Source of the DNA: Gemmatimonadota bacterium | GTDB taxonomy: Bacteria > Gemmatimonadota > Gemmatimonadetes > Gemmatimonadales > GWC2-71-9 | Assembly (NCBI GenBank): GCA_036679605.1 | Contig: JAZDCZ010000286.1 | Location: forward strand, 1 to 11,112 | Direction: 5' to 3' | DNA: 11,112 nt | In this document: piece after piece, positions 214 through 11,077 of the stretch | How the letters are laid out: each line of letters begins with the position of its first letter | Position numbering within the stretch: position 1 is the stretch's first letter | Notes under the pieces: generated by a model | What the model was told of the DNA's origin: nothing | Databases searched by the model: none | What the model saw: only the letters and a program-made list of their open reading frames with translations | Program-made: the position numbers and the translations under genes

Positions 214-1236
214 ATGGACTCGTATGAACACTTAGCGGTGCCGCTTCCGGGTGAACGGCTTACCATGGAGCCACCACCCCAGTACCCGGCGGGCATCATC
301 AACATCACCAACCGTTGCAATCTGAGTTGTACTCACTGCTACCTGTATGCAGACGGAAACCCTAGCGACCAAAGCGATCATATCCCCGACGAAGAGCTAC
401 TGGCCGAAGTAGAACGGATTCGCGACCGCCACGGCCTCATGTCGATGGTCTGGCAAGGTGGTGAGCCGATGATCCGCTGGCGGCTGCTCGAACGTGCCGT
501 TAAGCTTTTCACCCGCAACACGATCACGACGAATGGAACGATTCCGCTGAGGGAATTTGGACTGACGGTAACTTACGTGGTGTCGCTGGACGGACCGGAA
601 GACTTGAACGATCAACTGCGTGGAACCGGTGTATACGCGCAAGCGCGAGCAACGATCGAAAAGGTGCCGGTCGATTTCGAATCGACGATCCAGGTGCAAT
701 GCGTAGTAACGAAAGCAAACCAACATCGCTTGCATGAACTCGTGGAAGATCTCGTTGACAGTCGAACAGACGGAGTGACGTTCAGTTTCTACTGCCCCAA
801 TAGGGGAGAAACACCGGCTATTGCGTGGGCTGACGCCGAGGAGCGCGAACAAGCAGTCGACGTCGTAGTCGGGTTGAAACGTCAGTATCCGGGCTTCATC
901 TGGAACGCGCAACGCGCTCTCGATTTGATGCGCGCGCCGACGGCCGACCTGGTGACACGCAACTGCCCCGCCGTGCGCACGGTAATTCCCCTGTACGTAG
1001 AAAACGGCCGGATCGTCACGCCGTTTTGTTGCCACGGCAACAACCTCGACTGCCGGCGCTGCGGTACCTGGGTAGCGTTCGCACACGCGGCGAAGATACC
1101 GGGGCCGTGGGACGAGGTGTTGCCGCAGAGTCGGCCCCACGGCTTCTTGGCAGACTACGTCAAACGTACCGCGTTACGGCGAAGCCAGCCGTCACGCGGT
1201 ACGTTTGACCTGAGGGGGCATGGGTCGCGGGATTGA
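214..1236 (+). CDS. Radical SAM enzyme with a C-terminal Cys-rich (twitch/SPASM-like) auxiliary cluster region
   Basis: Contains CxxxCxxC (ITNRCNLSCTHC), GGEP, TTNG and VSLDG motifs, plus C-terminal NCPA...FCCHG...DCRRCG. Confidence 0.92.
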   Translation: MDSYEHLAVPLPGERLTMEPPPQYPAGIINITNRCNLSCTHCYLYADGNPSDQSDHIPDEELLAEVERIRDRHGLMSMVWQGGEPMIRWRLLERAVKLFTRNTITTNGTIPLREFGLTVTYVVSLDGPEDLNDQLRGTGVYAQARATIEKVPVDFESTIQVQCVVTKANQHRLHELVEDLVDSRTDGVTFSFYCPNRGETPAIAWADAEEREQAVDVVVGLKRQYPGFIWNAQRALDLMRAPTADLVTRNCPAVRTVIPLYVENGRIVTPFCCHGNNLDCRRCGTWVAFAHAAKIPGPWDEVLPQSRPHGFLADYVKRTALRRSQPSRGTFDLRGHGSRD

Positions 1237-1238
1237 CC

Positions 1239-1772
1239 ATGAGACGGTACGCAGTTGATGACGTTTTCTTCTATATCGGCAAGGTCGCCGATCGCCCGCA
1301 TGAGTCGCTGGCATTGATCGAGATTCTAGAGAGCGGCTACAATATTTTGTGAGGTCTGGTCGGAGGCGAGGTTATCACCCGGAAACATCCTGCGCATCTA
1401 ATGACCTACGAGCGCCGCCCGTCCGTCATGGCGCTCATTCATGCCCAACCCACCAGTGTCAACGTGCTCGCCCGACTGTTCCATGACGAGGAGAACATAA
1501 ACCGCCTGCTTTCGGTCCAACATGAGCAACTGAAGGTCTTCGCTCCGAACGGGATAGGCCTCATTGATGCGCACGAACCGATCAAGGCACTGAACAGCGC
1601 TTGCGATCTCCAGGAGTACTATTACGACGCGGCCCGGACGTTTCTCGACAATCCATTATTGCGGTTGTTGCCGATCGATCTCATCGTGCGCAACCTTGGC
1701 CGTGTTGCCCGTCTCCCGCTCGGCGACCGTTTGGTAAGCGCCCTGCTTCGCGCACCTCTAGCCCGAGGCTAG
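1239..1772 (+). pseudogene. rhaD: Disrupted class II aldolase, rhamnulose-1-phosphate aldolase (RhaD)-like
   Basis: ATG 1239 is in frame with the 1401..1772 ORF across a TGA at 1350-1352. The joined sequence GYNIL*GL...HPAHLMTY...LIHAQPT...INRLL...VFAPNGIGLI follows RhaD GYHILWGL...LPAHFLSH...IMHCHAT...FTRQL...VFPDGVGIL, and the stop sits on the conserved Trp. The N-terminal GGN motif and the PG...HG segment appear to be missing. The symbol is family-level only. Confidence 0.65.
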
Positions 1773-1777
1773 GCTAC

Positions 1778-2011
1778 GTGCACTATGAGTATCTACCCGA
1801 AGATCTGTATCCTTTTAAGTCACACTGGCACTAGATCGACGGTCTGCCGGTTCACTATATCGACGAGGGGCAAGGCAAGCCCCTGCTGTTTTTGCACGGG
1901 AATCTGACATGGAGCCTACTTTACCGCGACATCGTCAAGGATCTGCGTGATCGTTACCGCTGTATAGCGGTAGACTACCCGGGGATGGGTCTGAGCGGGA
2001 AGCCGCGTGAT
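1778..2011 (+). pseudogene. Truncated alpha/beta hydrolase, haloalkane dehalogenase / OleB-like
   Basis: From GTG 1778: HYEYLPEDLYPFKSHWH*IDGLPVHYIDEGQGKPLLFLHGNLTWSLLYRDIVKDLRDRYRCIAVDYPGMGLSGKPRD. This matches the HLD/OleB N-terminus (YPF..HY.DEG.G...HGNP.WS..YR...RCIA.D..G.G.S.KP). There is an in-frame TAG at 1832-1834, and similarity stops before the nucleophile motif. Confidence 0.85.
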
Positions 2012-2061
2012 CGAAGCAACGTATCGGGTGTAACTACCGACGCGATCCCAAAGAGTTCCTC

Positions 2062-2257
2062 TCATAGGACTTTCCTCGCCTTGGCGGCCAAGCGGCGCCG
2101 CTGCGCATCGGTCAGCAACAGACGCTTGCCTCCGAGTTGTTCGCGCAGAACGCGATTCTCCTCTTGGAGATATTCGATGACATCTTGCTGGCTACGGTTG
2201 ACCCATCCGGCTACGGCCGGCGATGACGGCAGCTCGCAAGGGAATAATATTACTCAC
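2062..2257 (-). mobile_element. Transposase remnant (N-terminal fragment of an integrase-core/rve transposase), frameshifted and truncated
   Basis: The minus strand reads [51 protein letters not shown], the typical N-terminus of a widespread rve-domain transposase family ([36 protein letters not shown]). The likely GTG start at 2257 is one base out of frame, and there is no DDE core. Confidence 0.75.
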
Positions 2258-2337
2258 GTTTCTGCCGGCCGGGTTTTGGCGTTATACGGGGTCGATGCCT
2301 GCGGCCGAGACGCGCGAAGGTGGGCTTCTCCCATATC

Positions 2338-2850
2338 TCAGTGATTGTGCTCCTCGTGAGCGTCACCGGATGGAGACTCCGGATAGAGCTTTCTCATATA
2401 GCTAAGCCTTTTTTCAAGCTCGGCAAACTCCATCGCGGTTCGCTCTGCATCGCCGGTGTCGCCGTACATGTCGAGGTTTTTTGCATGCTCCGCCACACGG
2501 TCTACGTAGCCTGCAAGCATCTTCTGTTTAGCTTCCGAAAGATCTGTCGACTTCTCTGACAACTCCTTCGCCAGATCGCGGATGCCGAACGCTATCTTGT
2601 GGACATCTGCTAACTTGCCGGAATCGATTATGTGGCTGAGCCGTTCGATGTCAGCATCGATAGCACGCCAAAGTTCGGCAGCCGTCTGCTGTTCTTCATC
2701 GCTAGCTCTGTCCTCGTTTGCTTCGTGGATGGCGTTCAGCTCGCCTCCGTGTTCGTGCCCACCGCTTGCAGCACTTTCCGTCGCGGTGGCTAGCCAGATG
2801 GCCGAGGCGCAAATAAGCATAGTTGTCATCATCCAGTTGGTTTTCATCAT
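2338..2850 (-). CDS. Exported His-rich helical protein; putative periplasmic metal-binding protein or chaperone of the efflux operon
   Basis: GAGGAG RBS at 2857-2862. Sec-type signal peptide, GGHEHGG near the mature N-terminus, C-terminal HEEHNH, and an amphipathic all-helical core. It is the last gene of the RND operon. Confidence 0.85.
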   Translation of the reverse strand: MMKTNWMMTTMLICASAIWLATATESAASGGHEHGGELNAIHEANEDRASDEEQQTAAELWRAIDADIERLSHIIDSGKLADVHKIAFGIRDLAKELSEKSTDLSEAKQKMLAGYVDRVAEHAKNLDMYGDTGDAERTAMEFAELEKRLSYMRKLYPESPSGDAHEEHNH

Positions 2851-2891
2851 TGTTTTCTCCTCGATCTTCGCTTGTTGGTGTCGGTCGGCAG

Positions 2892-3011
2892 TTAATGGGG
2901 ACTCTTTCGGCTCATCGCCTCCATCCCGCGCAGTTCCTCGCTGGTTAGGTCCGGAAGGTGACGAATGATAAAGAAAGCAATCTTATGTGATGCGACAGGG
3001 GATTGAGTCAT
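2892..3011 (-). CDS. Possible 39-aa small ORF coupled to the RND pump gene
   Basis: ATGA overlap with the pump stop codon (3008-3011) and GAGGT about 6 nt upstream. Sequence: MTQSPVASHKIAFFIIRHLPDLTSEELRGMEAMSRKSPH*. Confidence 0.3.
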   Translation of the reverse strand: MTQSPVASHKIAFFIIRHLPDLTSEELRGMEAMSRKSPH

Positions 3012-6000
3012 TGCTTAACCTCGTTGTTCGTCTGCTCGTTCGTATCGTTTCCAGCGCCTGCTCCGTACTTCGCTGGAAAGATGCGTGAGAGTTGCTCAGG
3101 GCATTCAAGGCGGAAAATCTTTTCTGCGGCTCTTCCTCCGAAGTGCCAAAAAACAGCAGGAGTGACGACTACGTCGAGAAGCGCCGAAGTCATAAGTCCA
3201 CCGAAAACGACAACCGCTACTGGGTAGAGGATTTCTTTGCCAGGCTCGCCCTGCGCAAGCAGTAAGGGTACAAGAGCCAAACTGGTAGTCAGTGCGGTCA
3301 TCAACACAGGGACCAGGCGGTCAAGGGAACCACGGACTATCATTTCTCTGTCGAAGCACTCTCCTTCGTAACGCATCAGGTGCAAATAGTGGCTGAGCAT
3401 CATAATTCCGTTTCGCGAAGCGATGCCGCAAAGCGTAATAAATGCTACTAGCGAGGCCACACTGGCCACGCCTCCAGTGAGCTTTATCGCTACGATGGAA
3501 CCGATCATCGCGAAAGGAATATCCAAGAGCACCTGAGCGACTATGCGTCCCGAGCGAAAATGCGTATAGAGCACCATGATCATCCCAGCCAGTGAGAAGA
3601 GGCTTAGCAGCCCAATGAGCCGCGTAGCCTCTTGTTGGCTCTCGAACTGGCCGCCGTAGGTAACGAAGTATCCTTCCGGTAACTGGATGTGCTGGGCGAC
3701 CCGCTCCTGAATGTCCGCTACGACGCTTCCCAGGTCGCGCCCGCTGACGTTGGATTGGATAACGATGCGGCGCTGCACGTTTTCTCGCAGCACTTGGTTC
3801 GGCCCTTTACTCTCGATGACGCGTGCGACCGCGCGAAGTGGAATCAGCTGTCCGTTAGGGGTGTCGATGAGAATGTTTCCGAGCGTCTTGGAGCTCAAAC
3901 GGGTTTCATCGGGGAATATTGCGACGAGGTCGAAGCGACGTTGGCCCTCGAGTATTTCGCTGACCGTATCGCCCTGAAGCGCCGCCTGGAGCACCTTTGC
4001 AACCTCGCCTACCCGCAGCCCGTACTGGCGCACGGCATGGCGGTCGATCTCTACCCGGGTTTGCGGAATCAAGACCTGTTGCTCAACGTAGAGATCGACC
4101 ACGCCGGGGACTTCACTTATGACGGCGCGAATCGCCTCAGCCTTTTCCCTGAGCGTGGTTAGGTCCGAGCCGAAGAGCTTCACTGCAATCTGGGCGCGGA
4201 TGCCGGAGAGGAGGTGATCGATGCGATGGCTAATGGGCTGGCCGATGTTCACAACAACACCGGGGATGGTGGCTAGCCGCGCGCGCACATCGTCGAGGAT
4301 AACGTCGCGCTCTCGGGGCTCCGGCCCAGGGCGAGCCTCGACGAGGCCTACAAGGCGGCCTAGCCCACGGACGAGGTCCGTGCTTTCCGGATTCACGATC
4401 TCAACTTCGATTTCGGTGGAGTGCACACCCTCGGCGTGCTCGTCCTGTTCGGCGCGACCCACGCGTCGGCCTGTTTCTTTCACCTCTGGCACGGCACGGA
4501 TGAGCTTTTCTGCAAGCGTGCCGACACGGTTACTCTCCGCCAAGGACGTTCCGGGCGGAAGGAGAATGTTAATTGTCACGCTTCCCTCGTTGAATGGTGG
4601 GAGGAATTCTCGACCAAATCCCAAGAGCAGTAAGAGGGCAAGCCCTAAGGCGGTAAACGCTGTGCCCATAGTCAGCTTCGGATGAGTAAGGGTGTAGCGA
4701 AGAACGAAGCGCCGGTCGGCCCATTTTAGAAAGCGAACGAAGAAGCCGTCCTTCTCCCCCGCCATGAATCGCGCGCTGGGCAACAGGTAGCTAGCCAACA
4801 CCGGGGTAACGGTCAACGAAACAGCAAGCGAGGCAACTATCGAAACAACGTAGGCAATTCCCAGCGGCACGAAGATTCGGCCCTCGATGCCACCCATCGC
4901 GAACAGTGGCATAAAGACCAGGATGACGATGATCGTGGCGAACACGATGGAGTTCCGGATTTCACTCGACGCTTCAAAGACGACCTCAAGTGATGGTTTA
5001 GGAACAGCCGCGCGGTGGTTCTCTTTGAGACGTCGAAAAACGTTTTCCACATCCACGATGGCATCATCGACCAGCTCCCCTATGGCGATCGCGATGCCAC
5101 CGAGTGTCATCGTGTTGATGGTCATGTCGAACCATCGAAACACGAGGAACGTTACAACCAGTGACAGTGGGATAGCGCTGAGCGTGATAAAGGTCGTACG
5201 GAAGTTGAGAAGGAAGAGAAACAGCACGATGACCACAAAAATCGCACCATCTCTTAGTGCTTCGACGACGTTGCTAATAGCGGCCTCGATGAAGTTCGCC
5301 TGACGAAAGATGTGCTTGTTGATCTCGATCCCCTCGGGCAGACCTCTCTGAATGTCTTCGAGGGCGGCATCGATCTGTTCGGTAAGTTCGATTGTGCTCG
5401 CACCGGGCTGCTTCTGGATACTCATGATGACAGCCGGAAGCGCGTTACTGCCGGCGTCGCCTCGTTTGAGCGGCCCGAGTCCATGGATCCGCACATCAGC
5501 TACTTGACCGATGGTAACCGGGATACCGTCACGCGTTACGATGACCGCCTCCCGTAGATCGTCGACCGAGCGGATGCGGGCAAGATTGCGAACCATGGAC
5601 TCGACCGGGCCCTTGATGACGAAGTTCCCGGCGGTATTTACGTTCGACTCTTCAAGCGCTTTTTCCACATCGTGGAGCGTCACACCGAGAGCGCTAAGCT
5701 TATCTGGACGCACCACTACCTGGTACTGTTTAAGCTCACCGCCGATGACAGTGATTTTGGAGACGCCACTGATACTTAGCAGCCGAGGGCGGATGACCCA
5801 GTCGGCCTGCGTGCGAAGCTCCATCGGGGAAATCTCGTCGCCGGTGATGGCGATGAGCATGATCTCTCCCATGATGGAGCTTACCGGGGCCAACGTAGCC
5901 GCCGAGTCCTCGGGCAGTGCCTCACGAACCGTGCCCAGTTTCTCGGTCACAATCTGGCGGTCGATATATATGTCCGTGCCCCAATCGAACTCGACGAAAA

Positions 6001-6277
6001 CGAGGGCAAGTCCGACAGAGCTTACCGAGCGTACGCGCTGCACACCGGTTGCGCCGTTCATTGCTGTCTCGACGGGAAACGACACCAGTGTCTCCACTTC
6101 CTCGGGCGCTAGGCCTGGCGCTTCAAGAAAGATCGTCACGGTGGGTCGGTTAAGGTCGGGAAAGACATCCACCGGCAGGTTGTTCAGCACAAAACCACCG
6201 TAGACGAGCAGTAACACAGCCGCCGAAACGACGAAGATTCGATTCTTTAGTGAGAACTGAATAATACGGTTCAGCAC
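3008..6277 (-). CDS. czcA: CzcA/CusA-family heavy-metal efflux RND transporter permease
   Basis: 1089 aa. Motifs LPVDVFPDLNRPTV, APEEVETLVSFPVE, TM4 GGIAIAIGELVDDAIVDVEN, GREFLPPFNEG, YGGQFESQQ, RNGIMM and RLVPVLMTA. GTG start with a GGAGG RBS. The symbol is family-level. Confidence 0.96.
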   Translation of the reverse strand: MLNRIIQFSLKNRIFVVSAAVLLLVYGGFVLNNLPVDVFPDLNRPTVTIFLEAPGLAPEEVETLVSFPVETAMNGATGVQRVRSVSSVGLALVFVEFDWGTDIYIDRQIVTEKLGTVREALPEDSAATLAPVSSIMGEIMLIAITGDEISPMELRTQADWVIRPRLLSISGVSKITVIGGELKQYQVVVRPDKLSALGVTLHDVEKALEESNVNTAGNFVIKGPVESMVRNLARIRSVDDLREAVIVTRDGIPVTIGQVADVRIHGLGPLKRGDAGSNALPAVIMSIQKQPGASTIELTEQIDAALEDIQRGLPEGIEINKHIFRQANFIEAAISNVVEALRDGAIFVVIVLFLFLLNFRTTFITLSAIPLSLVVTFLVFRWFDMTINTMTLGGIAIAIGELVDDAIVDVENVFRRLKENHRAAVPKPSLEVVFEASSEIRNSIVFATIIVILVFMPLFAMGGIEGRIFVPLGIAYVVSIVASLAVSLTVTPVLASYLLPSARFMAGEKDGFFVRFLKWADRRFVLRYTLTHPKLTMGTAFTALGLALLLLLGFGREFLPPFNEGSVTINILLPPGTSLAESNRVGTLAEKLIRAVPEVKETGRRVGRAEQDEHAEGVHSTEIEVEIVNPESTDLVRGLGRLVGLVEARPGPEPRERDVILDDVRARLATIPGVVVNIGQPISHRIDHLLSGIRAQIAVKLFGSDLTTLREKAEAIRAVISEVPGVVDLYVEQQVLIPQTRVEIDRHAVRQYGLRVGEVAKVLQAALQGDTVSEILEGQRRFDLVAIFPDETRLSSKTLGNILIDTPNGQLIPLRAVARVIESKGPNQVLRENVQRRIVIQSNVSGRDLGSVVADIQERVAQHIQLPEGYFVTYGGQFESQQEATRLIGLLSLFSLAGMIMVLYTHFRSGRIVAQVLLDIPFAMIGSIVAIKLTGGVASVASLVAFITLCGIASRNGIMMLSHYLHLMRYEGECFDREMIVRGSLDRLVPVLMTALTTSLALVPLLLAQGEPGKEILYPVAVVVFGGLMTSALLDVVVTPAVFWHFGGRAAEKIFRLECPEQLSRIFPAKYGAGAGNDTNEQTNNEVKQ

Positions 6278-6328
6278 GACGTTGCCCTCCCGGCGGCGCG
6301 ACGTTTCACTGGCGGAATCCCAAAGACT

Positions 6329-8242
6329 CTACTCATGGGCTCTTCTTCCTTGTTCCTTTGTTGCGCCGCTGGTGCGGGCCAGCGGGGGTTTGCCGGGCTC
6401 GGGTACCACCGGACTATTGGTGGCAAACTGGAGAGCGTGGTTGCCTTGGGTGACAACGACGTCCCCAGGCAAGATGCCGTCACGAACCTCTACGTAGCGC
6501 GCATCTCGTCTACCGAGCTGGACGCGCTTGCGAGTGAAAAAGTCACCGCTTCGCACAAAGACGAATGCTTCGCCGCCCTCTGGGGCCGCAACCGCGGAGC
6601 GTGGTATAGCGACTAGCTCATCGTCGCTCTTGCCGATGATAATGTAGACTTCCACGCGCATGTTTGGTCGGAGCTTTCCCTGCGGTGCATCAACAAGGAT
6701 GTAAGCCGGTAGTGTGCGCGTGTTCTCGTCCACTTCACCCCCGAGATACGCCAGGCTTCCTGAGAAGGACTGGTCCGGATAGGCCGCCGAGTAGATATTG
6801 ACCGCCTGCCCAGGAGTAAGTGTCGGAACCTGGGGTTCGGGAACGTGGCACTTGACCAAGAGCCGGTCCAGCCGCGCGATCGTAAAGAGCGACTTGTCGG
6901 CGGAGACAGGCTCACCGAAGAACACATGCCGTTTGGTGACAACACCATCGAGCGTGGCTCGGATGTCTACTGTCGGGGGCGGTTCGCCGACTTGACGGGT
7001 CTCGATCTCGGCCAAGAGTTGGCCCCGCTCTACGATCTCGCCTTCCAGGACGTGAACACCGGTCACACGGCCGGCGATTCGAGTGCTTGAGTGGTGCAGA
7101 TTCGCGGGCAACGGCTCTACCATCCCAAAGCACTGGGTCGAGCGGTGAAGTAGGCGAAAATCCGCCGTCTCGACCTCGACACCGAGGTTACGCTGCGCGA
7201 GTTCGCTCAAGCGTACGCCGAGAACTGGATCGGTCTCACCGTCCTCGGCTTGTGAGTCCGTGGAGATGTCCTGCGTACCGGATGTATTCCGCGACCGTTT
7301 CTCCGCGTTTGCGGATGCAGCAAACTGGATCTGGTAGGCACCGCGGGTCACCACTCGGTCTCCGGGGACGAGACCGTCGGTTATCTCGACGTAAGCTTCG
7401 CCGCGACGTCCGACCCCCACAGGCACGCCGACGTAGTACGCACCTTTATCGAGAAACACGAACAGGTTTCCGCTTGCGCCCAGGATCGCATCGCTCGGAA
7501 CGACAACCACGTCGACCGCGCGACCGGTTATCAAGTCCACGCGCGCTCGCATGCCCGGGCGAAGAAGCCGTGCCGTGTTTTCTACCTTAATCCAAACGGG
7601 CAGTGTGCGCGTTGTCTCATCAAGAGCGCCGCCGATGAGAACAATCGGGCCATCGAACTTCCAGTCTCCGGCTGCTTCGGGAAAGATGCGCGCAGTCTGG
7701 CCAGCTCTTACCAAACCGGCATCGATTTCGAATAAGTTACATTTGACGTATAGCGTAGAGAGGTCGGAGATGCGATAAAGAACCGAATCCGGCTCTACCG
7801 GCTGGCCAACAGAAACGTTCCTTTCGGTCACCGTTCCGTCGATGCGCGAGGTTAGCGGCACCACCACGGGGCTAGCGGCCACATGGCGACTTTCAATCTC
7901 GACGAGTACATCGCCAACTTTCACGTGCTGACCGCTGTCGAAGTTGACCTTCGTTGCACGGCCTGGAAACCGAGGGCTTGCCCAATAGACCCGTCCTGGC
8001 ATCGGCTCCACGCTGCCATAACAGGTGACCGTGTCTTCGATCGTGCCCAGGTCCGCCTCTTCGCTCTCAATGCCGAGGATGAGTTTGGCCTCGTCGCTGA
8101 GCGTGATTGGTCCGAGGCTACCTACCGTCGCCGCAGGCGTTCCATGCTGCTCCCCTTCGTGGGCGCGTGAGCTTGGCACGGCGAGAAGGAGCAGCACCAT
8201 CCCAAGCCCTGCCGTCGGCCATCTGAGTTCCGCTCGCTTCAT
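6329..8242 (-). CDS. czcB: RND periplasmic adaptor (CzcB/CusB-like MFP) made of two tandem MFP modules
   Basis: Signal peptide ending SRA|HEGEQH. Two copies of G.VEP...GR...G..V..G..L.EIE...DG.V...LDE.TRTLP...LRP.MR...GRR...YVE..DG..PGD.VVT.G...QFA (aa ~46-308 and ~343-607). ATGA overlap with the TolC-family gene. The symbol is family-level. Confidence 0.93.
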   Translation of the reverse strand: MKRAELRWPTAGLGMVLLLLAVPSSRAHEGEQHGTPAATVGSLGPITLSDEAKLILGIESEEADLGTIEDTVTCYGSVEPMPGRVYWASPRFPGRATKVNFDSGQHVKVGDVLVEIESRHVAASPVVVPLTSRIDGTVTERNVSVGQPVEPDSVLYRISDLSTLYVKCNLFEIDAGLVRAGQTARIFPEAAGDWKFDGPIVLIGGALDETTRTLPVWIKVENTARLLRPGMRARVDLITGRAVDVVVVPSDAILGASGNLFVFLDKGAYYVGVPVGVGRRGEAYVEITDGLVPGDRVVTRGAYQIQFAASANAEKRSRNTSGTQDISTDSQAEDGETDPVLGVRLSELAQRNLGVEVETADFRLLHRSTQCFGMVEPLPANLHHSSTRIAGRVTGVHVLEGEIVERGQLLAEIETRQVGEPPPTVDIRATLDGVVTKRHVFFGEPVSADKSLFTIARLDRLLVKCHVPEPQVPTLTPGQAVNIYSAAYPDQSFSGSLAYLGGEVDENTRTLPAYILVDAPQGKLRPNMRVEVYIIIGKSDDELVAIPRSAVAAPEGGEAFVFVRSGDFFTRKRVQLGRRDARYVEVRDGILPGDVVVTQGNHALQFATNSPVVPEPGKPPLARTSGATKEQGRRAHE

Positions 8243-9573
8243 GGCTGCACCTCACTGACTTTAGCGAGAACGTCTTCGAGCGGGGCGTCTACCGCGCCTT
8301 CGAGATCGGACAGGGCCTGGTAGTAAGCCTCTAGCGCATCGAGCCGTGCATTCTCCGCAGCGAAGCGCTGTTGTTGGGTCTGAATGAGCTGAACTGCACT
8401 GATGAGCCCCTCCTCATAGGCTTGCTCAGCTAGGCGTTGGCCCTTCGTAGCCGCCTCTATGCCTCGCTGCAGCCCCCGAATCGCCACGAGCTGCTTGGTC
8501 GCGCGTTGATGTGCGTCTCGCACCTCTCGGTCTATATCTACGAGTGCAGACTCGCGCTGAGCTTCCGCCGTGCGTTCTCGTGCTGCGGCAGCCGCGATCT
8601 CGCCTTCATTGCGGTACAAGAGCGGCAATGGGATTCTGATCTGAAGACCTACAAAGTCGTTGCTGTCGGCAATGACGATTGGATTGTCGAAGCGGCTGCG
8701 CTCTCTCCGGTAACGGATACCTACCGTGGGGTCCGCCCAGCGCTCGGCGGTGCGAAGCGTTTTTTCAAGCTCGGCTGCCGCCGCTTCGCTCTGGAGGGCC
8801 TTAAGATCGGGCCGCTTGCGGGCTGCCTCTAGAAGCGGTACCAGTGGAAACGCTGCCTGACGGCCAGCGATCTCGGGCGAGAGGGTTAACCCGTCGGCGT
8901 GGGGCACGTTTAGCAGGCGACTGAGCTCGATTAGCGCCGAGTCGCGGTCTGCCCCCGAGCGCTCTGCCTCCTGGCGGCGCTGGGCGAGCTCGACGTCGAA
9001 CTGGTGCACATCCAGCTCTGAAACTTCACCGCGACCGAAACGCGCTCGGGCGACTCTCAACAGACGCTCGTTTAGAGCGGCTAAGTTTTGCGACAGCCGG
9101 ACTCGGCGGTCGATCACCTGGGCGCGGCGATAGGTTGCCCTGACCTGCGAAACAATACGCCTCGCAAGATCCTCAATGGACCAAGAGTCCCGCTCGAGCT
9201 CCTTGTTGGCAAGAGCGACGCGTTTGGAGACCTTGCCCAGAATCGGCACTTCCTGCTCCAGCCCAACGCCGTAGTCGTACTCTTTCGCGTCGGGGATCGA
9301 TGGCGCGCCCTCGACCGACAGTTCCGGGTTTGGGTAGGCGCGAGCAGCGCGCACTTTCGCACGCGCTATATCGAGGCTGGCGCGGGCGGCCCCAAGCTCG
9401 GCGTTTCTTGAGAGCGCCATCTCGATAGCCTCATCGAGCGCGAGTCCAGCGGGTGCTGGGTTATCATCGGCCCGAGCCAACCCCAGGGGGGCTGTCAGGC
9501 ACGCTAAAGCGAGAACAACTGTCAGGGCTGTGGTCGACTGCCGGTCTGAACTCCAGAGATGTATATTCCACAT
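8239..9573 (-). CDS. czcC: TolC-family outer membrane efflux protein (CzcC-like)
   Basis: Signal peptide ending ARA. Motifs LALDEAIEMALSRNAEL, YPNPEL, ARFGRGEVSELD, RPDL, IPLPLLYRNEGEI and AYEEGLIS form two OEP repeats. It lies directly upstream of the MFP and RND genes. Confidence 0.94.
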   Translation of the reverse strand: MWNIHLWSSDRQSTTALTVVLALACLTAPLGLARADDNPAPAGLALDEAIEMALSRNAELGAARASLDIARAKVRAARAYPNPELSVEGAPSIPDAKEYDYGVGLEQEVPILGKVSKRVALANKELERDSWSIEDLARRIVSQVRATYRRAQVIDRRVRLSQNLAALNERLLRVARARFGRGEVSELDVHQFDVELAQRRQEAERSGADRDSALIELSRLLNVPHADGLTLSPEIAGRQAAFPLVPLLEAARKRPDLKALQSEAAAAELEKTLRTAERWADPTVGIRYRRERSRFDNPIVIADSNDFVGLQIRIPLPLLYRNEGEIAAAAARERTAEAQRESALVDIDREVRDAHQRATKQLVAIRGLQRGIEAATKGQRLAEQAYEEGLISAVQLIQTQQQRFAAENARLDALEAYYQALSDLEGAVDAPLEDVLAKVSEVQP

Positions 9574-9750
9574 GAGATCTTCTTACCTATCCGTCTTTGT
9601 AAACACCGTTTGTCTTCACGTCCATGCGATACCGAGAGTCCGTCGGTTATACATCTCAGCACGCAACGCGATTAGCGCGATCTGTTCTCGTGCGGACAAA
9701 GCTATGCCGCACACGAGGCTCGGCTGGTCGCTACTAAAGAAGGGGCGTGG

Positions 9751-10191
9751 TCAGATCAGCAGAGAAGAGTTCGTAAGAAAGAGTTTTTCAGACTGAAGAG
9801 GCGGGGTGTAAGACAGGAAACACAGCCGCGTAGCGGCGAGACTGGAGGCGACGAACGATGAACTGGTTGACCAGAAGCCGGTTTGAGGGGCTAGCTTAAC
9901 CGGAGGACCGGTCTCATCCAGCCGAAACTCCTGAACCGAGGCGAGCACGGAACCGTTGCTACAGCAGGAATTCGTATCGTCTCTAGACTCCGGCGTGGGG
10001 GTCCCGTGGTGCTGGTGGTCATGCCGATGAGCGGTCCCATGCACGGCGTGAGTTAGGTCGGATGGCTTAGCTGCCGAGGCTTGCTCGATCAGGGAGCACT
10101 GCAGCGCCGGGGTCGCAAGCGCGGCGAGGAGCGACACGGCAAGCGTCGCGCGGGTCCTAAACCGTCTAAGCTGTGATGGTGCACATCTCAT
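9751..10191 (-). CDS. Small exported His/Cys-rich protein upstream of the efflux operon (CzcI / DUF2946 / HYC_CC_PP-like leader-type protein)
   Basis: Basic N-region plus a hydrophobic segment, then LQC, HAVHGTAHRHDHQHH, SCC, and C-terminal YTPP...LFLTNSSLLI*. This layout is typical of first genes of metal-transport operons. The exact start codon is uncertain. Confidence 0.75.
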   Translation of the reverse strand: MRCAPSQLRRFRTRATLAVSLLAALATPALQCSLIEQASAAKPSDLTHAVHGTAHRHDHQHHGTPTPESRDDTNSCCSNGSVLASVQEFRLDETGPPVKLAPQTGFWSTSSSFVASSLAATRLCFLSYTPPLQSEKLFLTNSSLLI

Positions 10192-10354
10192 CCAACTCTC
10201 ATTATCTCATACTTTGTGGTTATGGGTGACAGTACCCGCCGACAACACGGCGGTTCTACGAAGACAAAGTGTGGACCCGAGTTTGCCGATGACTGAAATG
10301 TGGTGGATGAAGTCGCGAGCGAACCCGTCTCTCACGGCTCGCTCCCGAATAAAA

Positions 10355-10375
10355 TAACAGGGAACTAACAGGGAA
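10355..10375 (+). repeat. Tandem direct repeat TAACAGGGAA x2 (11-bp period)
   Basis: TAACAGGGAA at 10355-10364 and again at 10366-10375. Confidence 0.85.
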
Positions 10376-10402
10376 GCACTACCGCCGTCAATCGAAATCG
10401 TC

Positions 10403-10431
10403 TTGCGGAAATACAGTATTACTGTCATAGT
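10403..10431 (+). promoter_or_regulatory. Putative sigma70 promoter of the TA operon with a palindromic operator in the spacer
   Basis: TTGCGG (10403-10408), a 17-nt spacer, then CATAGT (10426-10431). The spacer contains the palindrome ACAGTA-T-TACTGT (10413-10425). The ATG follows 7 nt after the -10 element. Confidence 0.65.
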
Positions 10432-10438
10432 GGTTCCC

Positions 10439-10669
10439 ATGCGAGATAAGGTCACGATCAACGAACGGGGTGTGATTACGATACCTGCAGCCGTCCGTCG
10501 GGCCTGTGGGCTCAAGGCGAACGACGAGCTGATACTCGAGAACACGGAGGAGGGCATCCTTCTACGTCCGGCGATCAGCGTGCCGATTGAGGTCTACACC
10601 GAAGAGCGCATCCGCGAGTTCGCAAGTGACGAAGAGGCTATCAGCGAGCATCTGCCGAAGCCCGAGTAG
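10439..10669 (+). CDS. vapB: AbrB/MazE/SpoVT-family DNA-binding antitoxin (VapB-like)
   Basis: MRDKVTINERGVITIPAAVRRACGLKANDELILENTEEGILLRP is a swapped-hairpin signature, followed by an acidic tail. ATG 10439 is preferred over TTG 10403, which coincides with the -35 box. Confidence 0.9.
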   Translation: MRDKVTINERGVITIPAAVRRACGLKANDELILENTEEGILLRPAISVPIEVYTEERIREFASDEEAISEHLPKPE

Positions 10670-10678
10670 GGATACCGC

Positions 10679-11077
10679 ATGCGGGTGTTCCTGGATGCCA
10701 ACGTTCTGTTTTCAGCGAGCAGGGTCGGGAGCAGCATCGCGAGGCTGATCGCTTGGCTGATAGAGCGAGAGATAGCAGTCACTAGTGATCTCGCGGTCGA
10801 AGAAGCGCGACGCAACCTTACTCTGAAACGCGAGGACTGGCTGCCTGTCTTCGAGGAACTTCTCGGAGACTTGGTAGTCGTGCCATCGGCATTGTTCGAT
10901 CTTCCCGTCCCGCTTGATACCAAGGACGCCCCACTGTTATGTGCAGCGATTCGAAGCCGGTGCAGTTTGTTTGTCACCGGCGACAAGCGCGACTTCGGTC
11001 ACCTCTACGGCCATACGGTACAGGGGGTCGAAGTGATCTCGTTGCTCCGCTTGGCTGAAATGGTACTGCCAAGTTGA
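10679..11077 (+). CDS. vapC: PIN-domain ribonuclease toxin (VapC-like)
   Basis: MRVFLDANVLFSA, EEARRNL, KDAPLL and FVTGDKRDF supply the PIN acidic residues. It begins 9 nt after the antitoxin stop. Confidence 0.92.
   Translation: MRVFLDANVLFSASRVGSSIARLIAWLIEREIAVTSDLAVEEARRNLTLKREDWLPVFEELLGDLVVVPSALFDLPVPLDTKDAPLLCAAIRSRCSLFVTGDKRDFGHLYGHTVQGVEVISLLRLAEMVLPS

Follow-up and report, generated by a model that had tools for sequence, protein, structure and literature searches.

An operon from a Gemmatimonadota bin is predicted to encode a tripartite heavy-metal exporter of the CzcCBA type whose adaptor resembles BesA: in each of its two tandem modules, a short loop takes the place of the helical hairpin. 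A natural tandem of this kind, within a widespread hairpin-less family of metal-pump adaptors, is apparently undescribed; the overall architecture is already known from BesA. We lean, if only slightly, toward a pump in which three tandem chains would form a six-module ring and the conserved loops, as putative binding sites, would dock the tips of the outer membrane factor (OMF) directly, making the pump shorter.

The window, that is, the whole stretch of DNA analyzed, is an entire contig of 11,112 bases. The genes of the operon follow one another on its minus strand in this order:

9751..10191, minus strand: small upstream His-rich ORF, DUF2946-like by language-model features, a lead only
8239..9573, minus strand: OMF of the TolC/CzcC type, 444 aa (PF02321)
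6329..8242, minus strand: tandem two-module periplasmic adaptor, 637 aa (TIGR01730, 245 bits against a cut-off of 94.9)
3008..6277, minus strand: heavy-metal RND transporter of the CusA/CzcA family, 1089 aa (TIGR00914, 792 bits against a cut-off of 701)
2338..2850, minus strand: secreted His-rich four-helix-bundle protein, an optional fourth operon gene according to its structure model and a comparison of loci

The 3′ end of the OMF gene and the start of the adaptor gene share 4 bases, and a scan of the window for promoters and terminators gave a chance-level result. Upstream of the operon lies a gene pair for a MazE/AbrB-type antitoxin and a PIN-domain protein (10403-11077, plus strand). At the other end of the contig, a radical SAM gene (214-1236, plus strand) is followed by degraded-looking ORFs within 214-2344 (plus strand), among them a partial alpha/beta hydrolase, which matches PF00561 across ~50 residues and, as judged by eye, has an in-frame stop immediately before it; a stretch near 2050-2215 on the minus strand may be a transposase fragment. 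The host bin (G000) has 6.7 Mb and 6.3% contamination, compared with 3.7 Mb for a genus mate that holds no match, and for this reason the contig was likely either acquired by transfer, maybe recently, or mis-binned. The short loops themselves are not an assembly deletion artefact, because the hairpin is missing at the same place in either module, seven more tandems (44-73% identity) are likewise without it, and a contig of 8,461 bases from run X1, which spans 2248-10708, shows zero differences, X1 being possibly the source sample and thus not independent.

The adaptor is divided as follows:

7313..8110, minus strand: module 1 (residues ~45-310), with membrane-proximal, beta-barrel and lipoyl domains
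7865..7894, minus strand: loop 1 (residues 117-126), in the hairpin's place, a degenerate copy of the family motif
7223..7312, minus strand: inter-module linker, disordered (pLDDT <50 at 312-340)
6416..7222, minus strand: module 2 (residues ~341-609)
6974..7003, minus strand: loop 2 (residues 414-423), with the family motif, the top-conserved 10-residue window of the barrel and lipoyl region

The protein thus has the linear domain set of the MFP family, and its two modules are 39% identical to each other over 268 residues. The N-terminus shows, by eye, a signal-peptide-like stretch, with no lipobox cysteine and no cysteine at all in the first 70 residues. A preliminary description of this DNA had quoted one peptide from each module, in which about 10 residues joined the two lipoyl half-motifs. 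Both peptides are real and in frame (residues 110-136 and 407-433) and the short junction is confirmed; their positions had to be corrected to 7835-7915 and 6944-7024, the earlier spans having dropped the first six residues of each. When the gap is defined as the residues between fixed anchors in profiles of the two half-motifs, it amounts to 8 in both modules, vs 75 in CzcB and 50-229 in those hairpin-bearing adaptors that were measurable among the first 120 homologues. The measure failed for divergent adaptors (most of L164-L192 and L209-L222), and in the L209-L222 adaptors the helical insert was judged by eye.

Neither module contains the helical hairpin or bundle that lies between the lipoyl halves of canonical MFPs (AcrA, MexA, CzcB, ZneB, CusB). 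The AlphaFold2 model, built on a 9-row alignment (mean pLDDT 76; 75-93 around the loops), agrees with this: both sites are strand-loop-strand, and the model has no hairpin anywhere and no helix longer than 15 residues, the longest (302-316) closing module 1 at its membrane-proximal end. The linker, which had been named as a place where a hairpin might form instead, is disordered, varies from 31 to 52 residues in homologues, is unconserved and lies on the membrane-proximal side. In Foldseek searches, BesA was the best match by target-normalised TM score (0.65-0.68; 0.43-0.62 for the other listed structures). By Z (15-16), BesA was level with ZneB and MacA. BesA also aligns to the family profile with no gap across the loop (E 5e-24). 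The best sequence matches among solved structures are ZneB and CusB.

The architecture is therefore of the BesA type: a loop of about nine residues separates the lipoyl halves, an OMF and an RND are encoded alongside, and no hairpin-bearing adaptor lies nearby. BesA itself, from the BesABC pump of Borrelia burgdorferi (PDB 4KKS/4KKT/4KKU), has the same three domains, short loop and OMF-adaptor-RND operon. However, BesA consists of one lipidated module, belongs to a multidrug pump, has a flexible loop and is ~20% identical, whereas the window adaptor is a non-lipidated tandem with a metal RND of the CusA/CzcA family and a conserved proline-rich loop; it lacks the lipidation cysteine, the single module and the multidrug RND that would mark a BesA orthologue. 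The CzcCBA, ZneCAB and CusCBA systems resemble the window operon in gene order, OMF and TIGR00914 RND, but their adaptors are single modules with a helical domain (the 75-residue insert in CzcB).

Nine full-length short-loop tandems were found, namely the window adaptor, P0002-P0008 (the seven mentioned above) and P0121, the loop being short in each module of all nine; P0009 and P0122 are incomplete tandems. Single-module short-loop relatives are far commoner. A genome scan with a pattern lying outside the loop confirmed 196 stretches, and all 80 of those listed, several of which are near-duplicates, have the 8-residue gap. These 80 loci come mostly from Verrucomicrobiota, with one from Thermodesulfovibrionales, and their loop composition (E80 S77 R80 Q77 x G80 D67 P80 P80 P80) gives the motif ESRQxGxPPP. 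In an alignment of 91 rows, part of which was gathered with the loop pattern, the loop is the 10-residue window of lowest entropy (0.49 bits vs a median of 1.80). A metagenome scan, with patterns that included the loop, returned short gaps in 69 of 80 adaptors, long gaps in eight and unmeasured gaps in three. Among the top 150 representatives (50% identity), short gaps alone occur in 75 and long gaps alone in 67, and eight are unmeasured. Sulfuriferula and Burkholderiales are among the named relatives (loop measured on the cluster representative P0257), and seven Legionella plasmids carry others (loop measured on one). The distribution of the family is patchy: 10 of the 151 Verrucomicrobiota genomes that were sampled have a member, the seed counted, as does one of 60 genomes related to that of the window; among another 300 genomes from the window's phylum, the listed matches nearly all start past the loop position. 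Four genomes in this last tally are marked unpublished, and so is G097, the source of L170, one of the 36 control OMFs used below; none of the conclusions rests on them.

Single-module members (P0014-P0019 and the Verrucomicrobiota loci) end with a His-rich tract plus a hydrophobic helix that is apparently a C-terminal membrane anchor; the tandem lacks this anchor. In a single case (P0126, 921 aa), an OMF and a hairpin-less adaptor occupy one ORF; the join contains a signal-peptide-like stretch, which points to a lost stop or a frameshift. The adaptor L169:1120-2355 (G084), a collinear match to both the family profile and the IhpB profile, may be a further hairpin-less type.

The history of the family was read from two trees, both quick searches with SH-aLRT support only. 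In the module tree (93 module cores, loop left out), the 13 tandem modules nest among the single short-loop adaptors (SH-aLRT 99), which places the duplication after the loss of the hairpin. The nearest hairpin-bearing relatives are uncharacterised tandems of ~740 residues (SH-aLRT 94). The clade with support 99 leaves out seven short-loop singles, which sit at an open fork, and the family may therefore have more than one origin. The partner RNDs of the family form one clade (support 100). Tandem adaptors that keep their hairpins (~700-770 aa; P0010-P0013, P0020, about 60 representatives; also L159:1624-3909), as well as engineered AcrA and TriAxB fusions, share with the window adaptor the presence of two modules per chain; the natural ones differ in the ~80-residue hairpins of both modules, and the hairpin-less tandem goes back to a separate duplication of its own.

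A second hairpin-less family, with a 5-residue gap and an ESN-type loop in 120 of 120 matches listed among 4,711 at E 1e-20 (for example, L175:1555-2631 on the minus strand, L019:13934-14788 and L205:4812-5762), has collinear matches on plasmids of Afipia, Nitrobacter, Shewanella, Legionella, Alteromonas, and Xanthomonas. It takes in the RefSeq-annotated IhpB and is collinear with the IhpB profile. As its adaptors group with CzcB (96) and its RND with CzcA (100), it lost the hairpin separately. Like the window adaptor, IhpB of Nitrobacter hamburgensis is hairpin-less and encoded in an OMF-adaptor-CusA/CzcA operon; the window adaptor (P0001) differs from it in loop and clade and scores 194 bits on the IhpB model (NCBIfam NF045680), for which the cut-off is 450. 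From the profile and the annotated orthologue, we infer that IhpB of B. japonicum is hairpin-less too. IhpABC, studied by Zhang and O'Brian, is reportedly a divalent metal exporter.

With these two families, the preliminary view of BesA as the one known exception no longer stands, and the accessible text of Greene 2013 already lists hairpin-less adaptors from Borrelia, Treponema, and Spirochaeta and, rarely, proteobacteria (one Legionella protein; PMC3807786). The accessible parts of several reviews treat BesA as an aberrant case (PMC4446572, PMC8277102, PMC8773123). In our literature search, which mostly covered papers outside subscription and is thus a weak negative, no account was found of the ESRQxGxPPP family, of naturally occurring tandems without hairpins or of a hairpin-less IhpB.

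On the CusA/CzcA model the window RND exceeds the cut-off, whereas its scores on the multidrug models stay below theirs. It falls outside the Cu(I)/Ag(I) subgroup of CusCBA: the CusB model gives 98 vs 390 bits, and the PC1 motif is His/Glu-rich, unlike that of the Met-bearing rows, which we take to be CusA-like. The family assignment and this motif indicate that the substrate is probably a divalent metal. In L. fallonii, however, the operon copy is flanked by a copper ATPase on one side and a multicopper oxidase on the other. At residues ~630-655, the window RND has a PC1 insertion of ~20 residues that is absent from the 31 other aligned RNDs. Two genomes carry RND ORFs of 1,470-1,487 residues that also score on the OMF profile (L223:4557-8966 and L227:383-4843), an apparent RND-OMF fusion.

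Near-complete OMF genes adjoin the adaptor in 121 of 151 short-loop loci, the remainder being mostly cut by contig ends, and both OMF and RND are complete in 84 of the 151 (window excluded). The earlier observation that the operon encodes no other MFP was borne out: there is no further adaptor ORF in the window, hence on the contig, and no second adaptor in any of these 84 operons; two of the 84 loci do contain other adaptors, which belong to separate operons that each have an OMF of their own. With no hairpin elsewhere in the adaptor and no second adaptor in the operon, the pump, if it uses the OMF at all, has to dock it in a non-canonical way. According to the available text of two reviews, canonical hairpins are inserted in a single loop of the lipoyl domain, the same loop as here (PMC4446572, PMC8773123). 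The same sources describe adaptors as a six-membered ring on the RND trimer and report that engineered AcrA tandems complement (PMC4446572, PMC8773123).

The mechanism that we propose builds on this arrangement. By analogy with known 3:6:3 pumps, three tandem chains would supply the six adaptor modules. Their membrane-proximal and barrel domains would rest on the RND trimer, the barrel and lipoyl domains would close into a ring, and six rigid proline-rich loops, located where hairpins would otherwise start, would form a rim for the six helical tips of the OMF. Such a pump would be shorter by one hairpin length. Loop conservation, the retention of the OMF and the lack of a lengthened partner together tip the balance, narrowly, toward contact through the loops. 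Bunikis 2008, in its accessible part, similarly suggests that the nine-residue loop of BesA touches the channel tip (PMC2279261). Against loop docking stand the shorter, divergent loops of outlying members, L208 and L226 among them (the L208 RND is the closest to that of the window, at 60%), the degenerate loop of module 1 and the lack of any OMF tip residue specific to hairpin-less operons; loop conservation may instead serve folding or contacts within the ring.

The partner proteins are ordinary in length. The OMF helices equal those of hairpin-partnered controls (72/35/72-75/31 residues); the distance from the strand to the first tip is 72 residues in 117 of 117 family members, with a median of 72 in 18 controls and 13 sister OMFs, and the span to the second tip has a median of 73 vs 72-75. 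Since, in addition, the docking regions DN and DC of the RND contain no insertion (22 family RNDs vs 10 others), neither partner compensates for the lost length. This weighs on an alternative in which the OMF touches the RND docking domain directly, the adaptor being a mere clamp around the junction and the loop structural. Direct contact figures, next to lipoyl contacts, in the model that the accessible text of Greene 2013 proposes for BesABC (PMC3807786), where the BesA loop is described as highly flexible; rim loops of BesB are invoked in that of Bunikis 2008 (PMC2279261), and the divergence of the L208 and L226 loops would fit a non-specific role. Nevertheless, these RNDs show no extension of the docking regions and, as far as the available text of a 2015 review goes, the narrow aperture of the CusB ring may exclude contact between transporter and OMF, while EM envelopes of AcrAB-TolC rule it out in that pump (PMC4446572). 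We consider direct contact unlikely here.

It is also rather improbable that the RND and adaptor act without the OMF, exporting to the periplasm only, or recruit a loosely held, self-opening OMF. Adaptors without hairpins offer no obvious gate opener, and BesC has been modelled with weak gates in the accessible parts of two reviews (PMC8277102, PMC4446572); yet the OMF is intact and adjacent, and both of its tips are conserved across 117 sequences.

Residue-level signals of loop docking were weak. The proposed check for co-evolution between OMF tips and the adaptor loop, an inter-chain MI-APC analysis of 91 operon-paired rows, returned scattered top pairs that are confounded by clade; the best loop pair, R416-G182 (z 3.8), tracks one subclade and hence was not counted. 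OMF residue E183 was considered as a partner of the loop arginine, being present in 109 of 117 family OMFs (93% vs 22% in 36 controls), and was rejected because it also occurs in 13 of 13 sister OMFs whose adaptors carry hairpins. S185 is found in 108 of 117 family OMFs vs three of 13 sister OMFs and six of 36 controls, a difference that may reflect ancestry. Prediction of a complex between one OMF chain and three copies of the barrel and lipoyl domains (91-row alignments) scored 0.00 in two runs, a result that carries no weight for either side.

The downstream protein (2338-2850) was modelled with confidence as a four-helix bundle (pLDDT 89.7), and it directly follows the RND in the window, in L. 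fallonii and in L208, which would suit a detached hairpin bridging the lipoyl ring and the OMF. However, four-helix homologues were present in only 16 of 84 loci that had an entire RND and no less than 900 bases after it, one of them only at a loose cut-off. Moreover, they are weakly conserved in sequence (15-34%), the annotated ihp operon has a P-II protein in their place, and most other loci, chiefly Verrucomicrobiota, have an unrelated His/Cys-rich protein after the RND, sometimes fused to the bundle. A bridging role is accordingly rather improbable. A fold search with the four-helix protein gave nothing at E 0.001, only generic bundles like PsbQ, cytochrome c′, and b562, and the protein looks like an exchangeable metal-binding accessory. 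The His/Cys-rich protein, secreted and of ~150 aa, with a GPNGGR motif and a C-terminal CxxC...CxC (for example, L028:11070-11528 and L045:11141-11611), is probably a metal chaperone.

Two-adaptor pumps such as TriABC (6VEJ) exist, and further adaptors are encoded in the genome; their inserts measure 60-75 residues, and some of these adaptors do not clearly belong to complete operons. One of these could in principle join a mixed ring and dock the OMF with its hairpin. The tandem can, however, fill all six sites alone, no protein among the best 150 representatives mixes short and long modules, and operons of the same three genes are found in different phyla and on plasmids; a borrowed adaptor is hence very improbable. 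Of the three routes named in the preliminary description, loop contact is thus favored by conservation, a separate helical partner is disfavored for the family in general, and contact between pump and channel finds no compensating extension.

Hairpin-less adaptors are perhaps the most serious challenge to the tip-to-tip model of assembly, according to the accessible part of the 2015 review (PMC4446572). Docking was left open for BesABC because BesB could not be expressed by the authors of the BesA study, as the available text states (PMC3807786). The families described above extend the question, since two large families of metal pumps share the hairpin-less architecture with ordinary OMF and RND partners. 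Hairpin-free docking could conceivably be a distinct and common class of assembly, a generalization to which we give somewhat less than even odds: hairpins would have been lost at least twice among metal-export adaptors (ESRQxGxPPP and IhpB/ESN), apart from or alongside BesA, and a conserved lipoyl loop would grip and open the OMF in a pump one hairpin shorter. If this is true, the natural tandem, which pre-links an adaptor dimer, would offer the best starting point for solving a first structure. Cultured, non-pathogenic hosts exist (Verrucomicrobium, Prosthecobacter, Thalassobacterium, Nitrobacter, and Afipia), and the short conserved motif together with the natural tandem makes the question of how an OMF is gripped and opened directly testable.
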